From a virus (lineage: Duplodnaviria; Heunggongvirae; Uroviricota; Caudoviricetes), in IMG/VR virus record IMGVR_UViG_2923307698_000007, positions 1-51,851 of that record: a DNA stretch of 51,851 nt; one strand, written 5' to 3'. A program made the translations under genes and the position numbers. The notes under the pieces are model-generated. The model saw only the letters and a program-made list of their open reading frames with translations. It did not search any database and was not told the origin of the DNA. This document shows positions 31,176-31,329 of the stretch, one piece after another. Numbering within the stretch: position 1 is the stretch's first letter; each line of letters begins with the position of its first letter.

Positions 31176-31252
31176 TGGTGCGTTGTACTGGGTTCGAACC
31201 AGTGACCGATTGCTTAGAAGGCTGGCGTTCTATCCCGATGAGCTAATGGCGG
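31176..31252 (-). tRNA. tRNA-like sequence, Arg (UCU anticodon loop) type, apparently degenerate
   Basis: Perfect T-arm ACTGG-TTCGAAC-CCAGT, 3 prime ACAACGCACCA, loop CTTCTAA, but acceptor and anticodon stems do not pair. Confidence 0.35.
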
Positions 31253-31253
31253 T

Positions 31254-31329
31254 TGGTGGCCCTTGCTGGATTTGAACCAGCGACCTGGCGATTATGAGTC
31301 GCTCGCTCTCACCACTGAGCTAAAGGGCC
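31254..31329 (-). tRNA. ileZ: tRNA-Ile2 (anticodon CAU), ileZ/ileX-like
   Basis: 76 nt GGCCCTTTAGCTCAGTGGTGAGAGC...CTCATAA...GGTTCAAATCC...GGGCCACCA; full cloverleaf, near-identical to recalled E. coli ileX. Confidence 0.85.

Follow-up and report, generated by a model that had tools for sequence, protein, structure and literature searches.

The window analysed here, the whole stretch of 51,851 nucleotides, is a lambdoid E. coli prophage without stx, and a near-identical prophage adjoins mlrA in strain HCP5S3_I4. The lambdoid character of the early-left region is confirmed by the presence of a cIII thermoregulator element. On the minus strand, the gene order is Q, ileZ, a 77-nt tRNA-like element, a TerB-like gene, a DUF3927 gene, the STnc100 sRNA, a nanS-p-type esterase gene, and the lysis and morphogenesis genes. 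The pair of tRNA-like elements that the preliminary description had placed at 31176-31329, one nucleotide apart, is indeed found at these positions, with both elements on the minus strand. The ileZ-type gene is the only tRNA called by ARAGORN across the 51.8-kb window. The features of the region are:

32131..31643, minus strand: Q antiterminator gene
31339..31367, minus strand: sigma-70-like promoter of the tRNA module (TTGCAA, 17 nt, TATTAT), from a consensus scan and upstream conservation
31254..31329, minus strand: ileZ-type tRNA-Ile2 gene, anticodon CAU, encoded CCA, 76 nt (ARAGORN, Rfam tRNA)
31253..31253, minus strand: 1-nt spacer (A) separating the CCA of ileZ from what was the 5' end of argN, from alignments
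31223..31252, minus strand: argN-derived part of the 77-nt element, 30/30 identical to argN of EC12 and Sp14
31217..31222, minus strand: crossover microhomology GCCTTC (nt 31-36 in both argN and argO), compatible with seven equivalent deletions
31176..31216, minus strand: argO-derived part of the 77-nt element, 41/41 identical to argO of EC12 and Sp14
31138..31161, minus strand: weakened terminator-hairpin remnant after argO, from comparison with phage 2851
31001..30573, minus strand: TerB-like gene
30576..30409, minus strand: DUF3927 gene
30235-30401, minus strand: STnc100 sRNA, between the DUF3927 and nanS-p-type esterase genes (Rfam, 101 bits)
44256-44314, plus strand: lambda cIII thermoregulator element (Rfam, 88.5 bits)

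A long inverted repeat, CCACAGAG ... CTCTGTGG, is present in the 5' region of the TerB-like gene (31002-31175, minus strand), along with a poly-G tract of 5 to 7 G, depending on the strain.

The ileZ-type gene (31329..31254, minus strand; GGCCCTTTAGCTCAGTGGTGAGAGCGAGCGACTCATAATCGCCAGGTCGCTGGTTCAAATCCAGCAAGGGCCACCA; anticodon CAT) scores 72.5 bits against the Rfam tRNA model (RF00005; gathering score 29) and folds into a canonical cloverleaf, the sole mismatch being A27-C43 at the top of the anticodon stem. It is identical to K-12 ileX at 68/76 positions and to metT at about 70%, and only 51 columns remain common when metT is added to the ileX/ileZ alignment. The pairs C4:G69 and C5:G68, by which E. 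coli TilS tells tRNA-Ile2 from tRNA-Met (PMC11947777), are present in this gene as they are in ileX; metT has T4:A69 and A5:T68 instead. The label 'Met' given by ARAGORN derives from the CAT anticodon alone, and identical ileZ copies are annotated as tRNA-Ile by the NCBI pipeline PGAP. The earlier reading of this gene as an intact tRNA-Ile2(CAU) of the ileZ type is therefore well supported by the ARAGORN and Rfam results, the similarity to ileX, the TilS pairs and the PGAP annotation. The gene presumably still yields a tRNA-Ile2 that is lysidine-modified by TilS and reads AUA.

The 77-nt element downstream (31252..31176, minus strand) reads CCGCCATTAGCTCATCGGGATAGAACGCCAGCCTTCTAAGCAATCGGTCACTGGTTCGAACCCAGTACAACGCACCA. 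It had been described as having a perfect T-arm, a CCA end and a UCU anticodon loop combined with stems that cannot pair, and this is what we found. In the tRNA register, the loop is CUUCUAA, the T-stem forms 5/5 pairs and the terminus is CCA; the acceptor stem forms 3/7 pairs, the D-stem 3/4 and the anticodon stem 2/5, compared with 7/7 acceptor and 5/5 anticodon pairs in intact argN and argO. The preliminary description would have been contradicted by a valid cloverleaf in a shifted register, and tRNA scanning of the element revealed none. ARAGORN made no call on the minus strand at default settings, with -ps, with -ps80 or with introns allowed, and at 60% (-ps60) it returned only spurious calls on the opposite strand. 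With the Rfam tRNA model, the element reached 19.7 bits (E = 0.25) where the gathering score is 29, and it folds no more stably than shuffled sequences do (minimum free energy, z = +0.96). A search of 30900-31600 for other RNA families at permissive E-values produced only sub-threshold chance matches (Plastid-ycf2, antisense of ileZ; Six3os1; YrlA; MIR530). By stem pairing and by scanner detection alike, the element falls outside the functional bacterial tRNAs. Judged by sequence, its likeness to a tRNA is nevertheless not due to chance, as its parts are 100% identical to their counterparts in intact argN and argO. The sole reason for the unpaired stems is that 5' strands from argN now lie opposite 3' strands from argO.

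BLAST searches against phage and E. coli collections identified the region as the ileZ-argN-argO cluster known from Stx phages and other lambdoid phages (gene names following AP012530 and NC_002695), and the link to Stx phages proposed from the sequence alone is upheld by these searches and by the alignments. The three genes were reportedly named by Plunkett and colleagues in the 933W genome paper of 1999. Our search of the accessible literature on ileZ/argN/argO and hybrid tRNA genes returned nothing relevant beyond a general mention of three tRNAs beside stx2a (PMC7946995). The best intact relatives are about 90 nt longer than the query, and their alignment to it breaks into two pieces. In the alignments to phage 2851, Sakai Sp14 and EC12, the only rearrangement is one gap of 90 nt. 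In a six-way tRNA alignment, the 77-nt element equals argN through nt 36 and argO from nt 31, the crossover being bracketed by A30, which is argN-specific, and T37, which is argO-specific. The argN-derived part corresponds to argN nt 1-30 (acceptor 5' strand, D-arm and the first 3 nt of the anticodon stem). The argO-derived part corresponds to argO nt 37-77, which spans the third anticodon base, the 3' strand of the anticodon stem, the variable loop and the T-arm, and further covers the acceptor 3' strand, the discriminator A and CCA.

One genome, E. coli EC12, matched at 100% a hypothetical parent in which the ileZ variant of the window is joined through the 1-nt spacer to an Sp14-type argN. 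The EC12 cluster is annotated as tRNA-Ile, tRNA-Arg, tRNA-Arg. When 90 nt are taken out of the EC12 cluster, the result is identical to window positions 31329..31176 (154/154). Because of the 6-nt GCCTTC repeat, which covers the 3' end of the 5' strand of the anticodon stem and runs into the anticodon loop, the window sequence is obtained exactly from any of seven equivalent 90-nt deletions with starts at argN nt 31-37. Moreover, 90 nt is the repeat distance from argN to argO (a 77-nt gene plus a 13-nt spacer). The 1-nt spacer after ileZ is the same in the intact clusters of phage 2851 and EC12, and 7 nt separate ileZ from argN in Sakai Sp14. We are highly confident that the 77-nt element is an in-register fusion of argN(UCG) nt 1-30/36 with argO(UCU) nt 31/37-77, created by one 90-bp deletion. 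The hybrid carries four lineage markers, A25 and C28 in its argN part and C61 and A74 in its argO part, and all four co-occur in intact clusters of the Sp14 and EC12 types. Since markers on both sides of the junction are found together in intact clusters, the deletion took place within one cluster type. We detected zero private mutations in the hybrid relative to the parental argN and argO alleles. The suggestion of a decayed argN/argO-type tRNA has thus to be abandoned, as no position differs from these alleles. The other suggestion, that of a tRNA 3' half left as a recombination scar, was right about the scar but not about the half: the element joins the 5' part of argN to the 3' part of argO.

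Among complete E. coli genomes, 20/5426 contain the identical 77-mer, aligned in one piece and devoid of an annotated feature; they stem from humans, dog, swine and sewage, among other sources. The 77-mer is also found in 6 IMG/VR contigs, and these occurrences rule out an assembly artefact. The hybrid allele was not found in deposited phage genomes, nor was the junction pattern found in one genome per species of GTDB. All hybrid copies have the junction and the 1-nt spacer in common. Upstream of ileZ, three (L005, L006, L011) of eight chimera-bearing loci examined lack any resemblance to the window, and the remaining ones carry the Q module of the window. In L005, the gene 5' of ileZ is a DNA-methyltransferase gene fragment; in EC12, the same place is occupied by an intact DNA-methyltransferase gene. 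The hybrid allele therefore lies behind at least two different upstream modules, and the pattern fits a single deletion event followed by spread via recombination of the lambdoid type. The hybrid is 100% conserved in all 26 copies, and the adjacent 176-nt intergenic stretch shows 0-4 differences in the same loci. With so little divergence in the flank, the invariance of the hybrid does not speak for constraint.

As its end points lie in the shared GCCTTC hexamer, the deletion most likely arose through short homology between the tandem paralogues; to judge from the junction, it would have proceeded by replication slippage or illegitimate recombination. In register, argN and argO are identical at 42/77 positions, with a perfect 6-nt identity at the junction (10/11 with the flank). 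Longer in-register identities exist elsewhere, namely 8 nt at nt 7-14 and 7 nt at nt 53-59, and homology length alone leaves the choice of the deletion site unexplained. The same junction could also have come about without an intramolecular slip, if the tRNA clusters of two different co-resident lambdoid phages or prophages had undergone unequal crossing-over mediated by RecA or Red. Up to 14 copies of the region are present per E. coli genome, the window joins a Q/upstream flank like that of phage 2851 to a downstream flank like that of Sp14, and the occurrence of the hybrid behind two unrelated upstream modules points to frequent recombination around the cluster. However, the flank mosaicism maps 5' of ileZ, distant from the junction, and the markers on both junction sides belong to one cluster type. 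Moreover, the whole parental arrangement (1-nt spacer, argN, argO and downstream flank) resides on one EC12 molecule, the argN and argO parts of the hybrid have so far the same closest intact relative, and the identity at the junction is far below what RecA requires. We consider such an exchange between two phages rather unlikely.

The anticodon loops of tRNA genes are classic crossover sites of integrases, and a tyrosine integrase might have used the anticodon stem-loops of argN and argO as pseudo-attachment sites. The junction does sit in the anticodon stem/loop, a second, independent deletion at other loci ends 5 nt past the argO anticodon, and the DLP12 attachment site in K-12 argU begins at nt 33, in the anticodon loop. 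Even so, we regard this route as very improbable. The third anticodon base sets the two 7-nt loops apart (CTTCGAA vs CTTCTAA), and integrases normally fail to exchange strands across a mismatched overlap region. In addition, the core binding sites would have to be the anticodon stems, whose sequences are unrelated; the second deletion ends elsewhere and has a non-tRNA partner, and no integrase is known that targets the argN or argO genes. An attachment-site tRNA fragment was also considered and rejected, the element being interior to the prophage, between Q and the lysis genes; in the near-identical prophage, the integrase is about 18.7 kb from the hybrid. Likewise, the element is not an attachment-site copy of the host argU, from which its 3' part differs at many positions in K-12.

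It is scarcely credible that the 77-nt element is a working RNA, be it an atypical tRNA, a processing signal of tRNA-like shape or a decoy for nucleases that attack the anticodon loop of Arg-tRNAs. Such a role would be in line with the intact T-arm, UCU loop and CCA end, and with the perfect conservation of 26 copies. Against it stand the poor acceptor and anticodon stems, the silence of the scanner even when relaxed, a folding energy like that of shuffles, and a conservation that the neighbouring non-coding DNA matches. The allele is also rare, being found in 20/5426 genomes as against 3061 genomes that match a 321-nt query around the cluster. Decay in place of an argO-type gene by point mutations deserves virtually no credence, although four substitutions relative to phage 2851 and the unpaired stems might suggest it. 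All four substitutions, namely A25, C28, C61 and A74, occur in the intact argN/argO genes of Sp14 and EC12 and are parental polymorphisms, there are zero private changes, and the first 30 nt are argN, not argO; point-mutation decay is thereby refuted.

Within the deletion scenario, the argN 5' and argO 3' strands are non-complementary, and the hybrid RNA would be unable to form an acceptor or an anticodon stem. It would then be no substrate for RNase P, ArgRS or the ribosome. Presumably transcription of ileZ runs on into the hybrid, whose RNA forms a 3' trailer and is trimmed off; from its sequence and predicted folding, the hybrid is most likely non-functional. When the whole transcript of ileZ plus remnant is folded, the ileZ acceptor helix closes as a separate domain without pairing to the hybrid. 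In intact clusters with the 1-nt spacer, an RNase P cut at the argN 5' end would free ileZ 1 nt past its CCA. Because the hybrid lacks an acceptor stem, this cut downstream of ileZ has presumably been lost, and the ileZ 3' end would now be generated by RNase E and/or 3' exonucleases.

The promoter-like element TTGCAA-17-TATTAT ends 9 nt 5' of ileZ. Across ileZ-bearing loci, 42 distinct upstream sequences are best conserved in the columns of the -35 and -10 hexamers; the spacer between them and everything further upstream are variable. The -35 hexamer is where homology among otherwise unrelated phage contexts starts, and a terminator directly precedes the promoter-like element in some phages. 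The placement of these terminators and the conserved hexamers suggest that the tRNA module probably has its own promoter. On the other side of the cluster, phage 2851 carries after argO a 7-bp hairpin, GGCUCGC-UUUU-GCGGGCC, followed by a U-run. The window/Sp14/EC12 lineage has two substitutions that each break a different pair of this hairpin. The hairpin is missing from the minimum-free-energy fold, and a terminator scan detected none. As two stem-breaking substitutions weaken the terminator, transcription may read through into the TerB-like gene.

The deletion also deprived the prophage of its supply of tRNAs for AGA/AGG and CGA. Codon counts were taken from the near-identical annotated prophage and from five flanking host genes. 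Per 1000 codons, the early prophage genes contain 11.6 AUA, 14.5 AGA, 7.8 AGG and 12.5 CGA, and the late genes 5.3, 6.3, 5.0 and 4.5, respectively; the five host genes contain 0.7 AUA, 0.7 AGA, 2.0 AGG and 6.1 CGA. Given this use of AGA, AGG and CGA by the prophage, the demand for the lost arginine tRNAs persists. In the prophage of HCP5S3_I4, we also noticed a hypothetical gene of 590 codons in the opposite orientation (L131:19253-21025, minus strand), which has an equivalent in the nin region of the window. AUA amounts to 52 per 1000 codons in this gene and to 57% of its Ile codons, and AGA/AGG make up 72% of its Arg codons. It is likely a foreign 'moron' gene and would be dependent on ileZ-type and argO-type tRNAs.

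A survey of the slots downstream of ileZ in about 120 ileZ-bearing loci showed great variability, with intact argN(UCG) and argO(UCU) in roughly 62 of them. In about 21 loci (including L015, L022, L037, L040, L050 and L060), argN is decayed in place, and in 3 it is internally deleted. The genes decayed in place, a form commoner than the window hybrid, keep their acceptor strands and have an enlarged anticodon region (about 11 nt between the stem strands) and a broken T-loop (GCGGGT); ARAGORN is silent on them. A different arrangement is seen in the argN slot of LC567818 (PPompW prophages; L003:717-792), and also in L024 and L075, where a gene with anticodon UUU is annotated as tRNA-Lys. This tRNA combines the argN acceptor stem and T-arm with a replaced anticodon arm, and position 33 is C, not the usual U, if the anticodon is read as UUU; this looks like an anticodon remoulding of an Arg-type body. 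L038 has a UCU anticodon in the argN slot. An alternative set, Lys(UUU)-Thr(UGU)-Gly(UCC), follows the same ileZ in 11 loci (including L016, L052-L054 and L068), and the set Arg(CCG)-Gly(UCC) follows it in L029. Finally, in several loci (L028, L083, L105) argO is cut 5 nt past the anticodon, with GCCTTCTAAGCA followed directly by GCTGTGG, and is joined to the 3' part of DUF3927. This second deletion, of roughly 0.65 kb, removes the 3' half of argO, the TerB-like gene and the start of DUF3927 and shows little or no junction microhomology; its partner sequence corresponds to window positions 30528-30555 (minus strand).

It could be speculated that the anticodon arm of phage-borne tRNA genes is a preferred breakpoint through a directed process, such as hairpin-induced slippage or integrase pseudo-sites, instead of random microhomology. 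This idea fits the junction at nt 31-36, the ~0.65 kb deletion ending at argO nt 42, the arm replacements in the argN slot (UCG to UCU, and UCG to UUU on a body that is otherwise argN) and the enlarged, broken anticodon region of about 21 loci, although we hold it to be improbable. If it were true, anticodon arms would be hot spots that remodel the decoding range of phage tRNA sets.

The feature described here is a deletion-derived tRNA pseudogene beside a presumably working tRNA-Ile2 gene, that is, a known kind of event in a cluster known to be plastic, and specialists would find none of the features of the pseudogene surprising. The present analysis explains a recurring, unannotated tRNA-like 77-mer of E. 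coli prophages and provides its parent allele and its junction. It also illustrates how a lambdoid cluster of rare-codon tRNAs is lost piecemeal via short-homology deletions despite heavy use of AGA, AGG and CGA. In addition, the locus would be a natural case in which ileZ loses the downstream RNase P site that formerly defined its 3' end.

The window shares with the ileZ-argN-argO cluster of phage 2851, Stx2a phages and Sp14 its position between Q and the late/lysis genes, the promoter-like element and an identical ileZ. It lies 3' of Q and 5' of the lysis genes and is homologous in sequence, but only one of the three tRNA genes, ileZ, is intact, argN and argO being fused. The window feature is therefore a deletion derivative of the cluster and not a full member. 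Unlike the cluster of Stx phages, it has no stx genes downstream; TerB-like and DUF3927 genes are found there, as in Sp14. Deletions between short direct repeats, as in lacI, and unequal exchange between tandem tRNA genes, as in E. coli tyrT, are well known. As in such tandem-repeat deletions, exactly one unit was lost in register in the window and the junction lies in a short identical run. Unlike the functional single copy that results from tandem exchange, the product here is a misfit hybrid pseudogene, because argN and argO are identical at only 42/77 positions. The argU fragment at DLP12 resembles the hybrid in being a tRNA 3' portion, from the anticodon loop onwards, without matching 5' strands; in contrast to that fragment, the hybrid lies inside the prophage and not at its edge, and its 5' part comes from the neighbouring tRNA gene. 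As for the intact gene, the window ileZ has the anticodon loop, the discriminator and the CCA end in common with K-12 ileX and ileY, which encode the lysidine-modified tRNA-Ile2 that reads AUA. It differs from ileX by eight substitutions, including the one behind the A27-C43 mismatch, and from both host genes in being phage-borne, clustered and equipped with its own promoter-like element.
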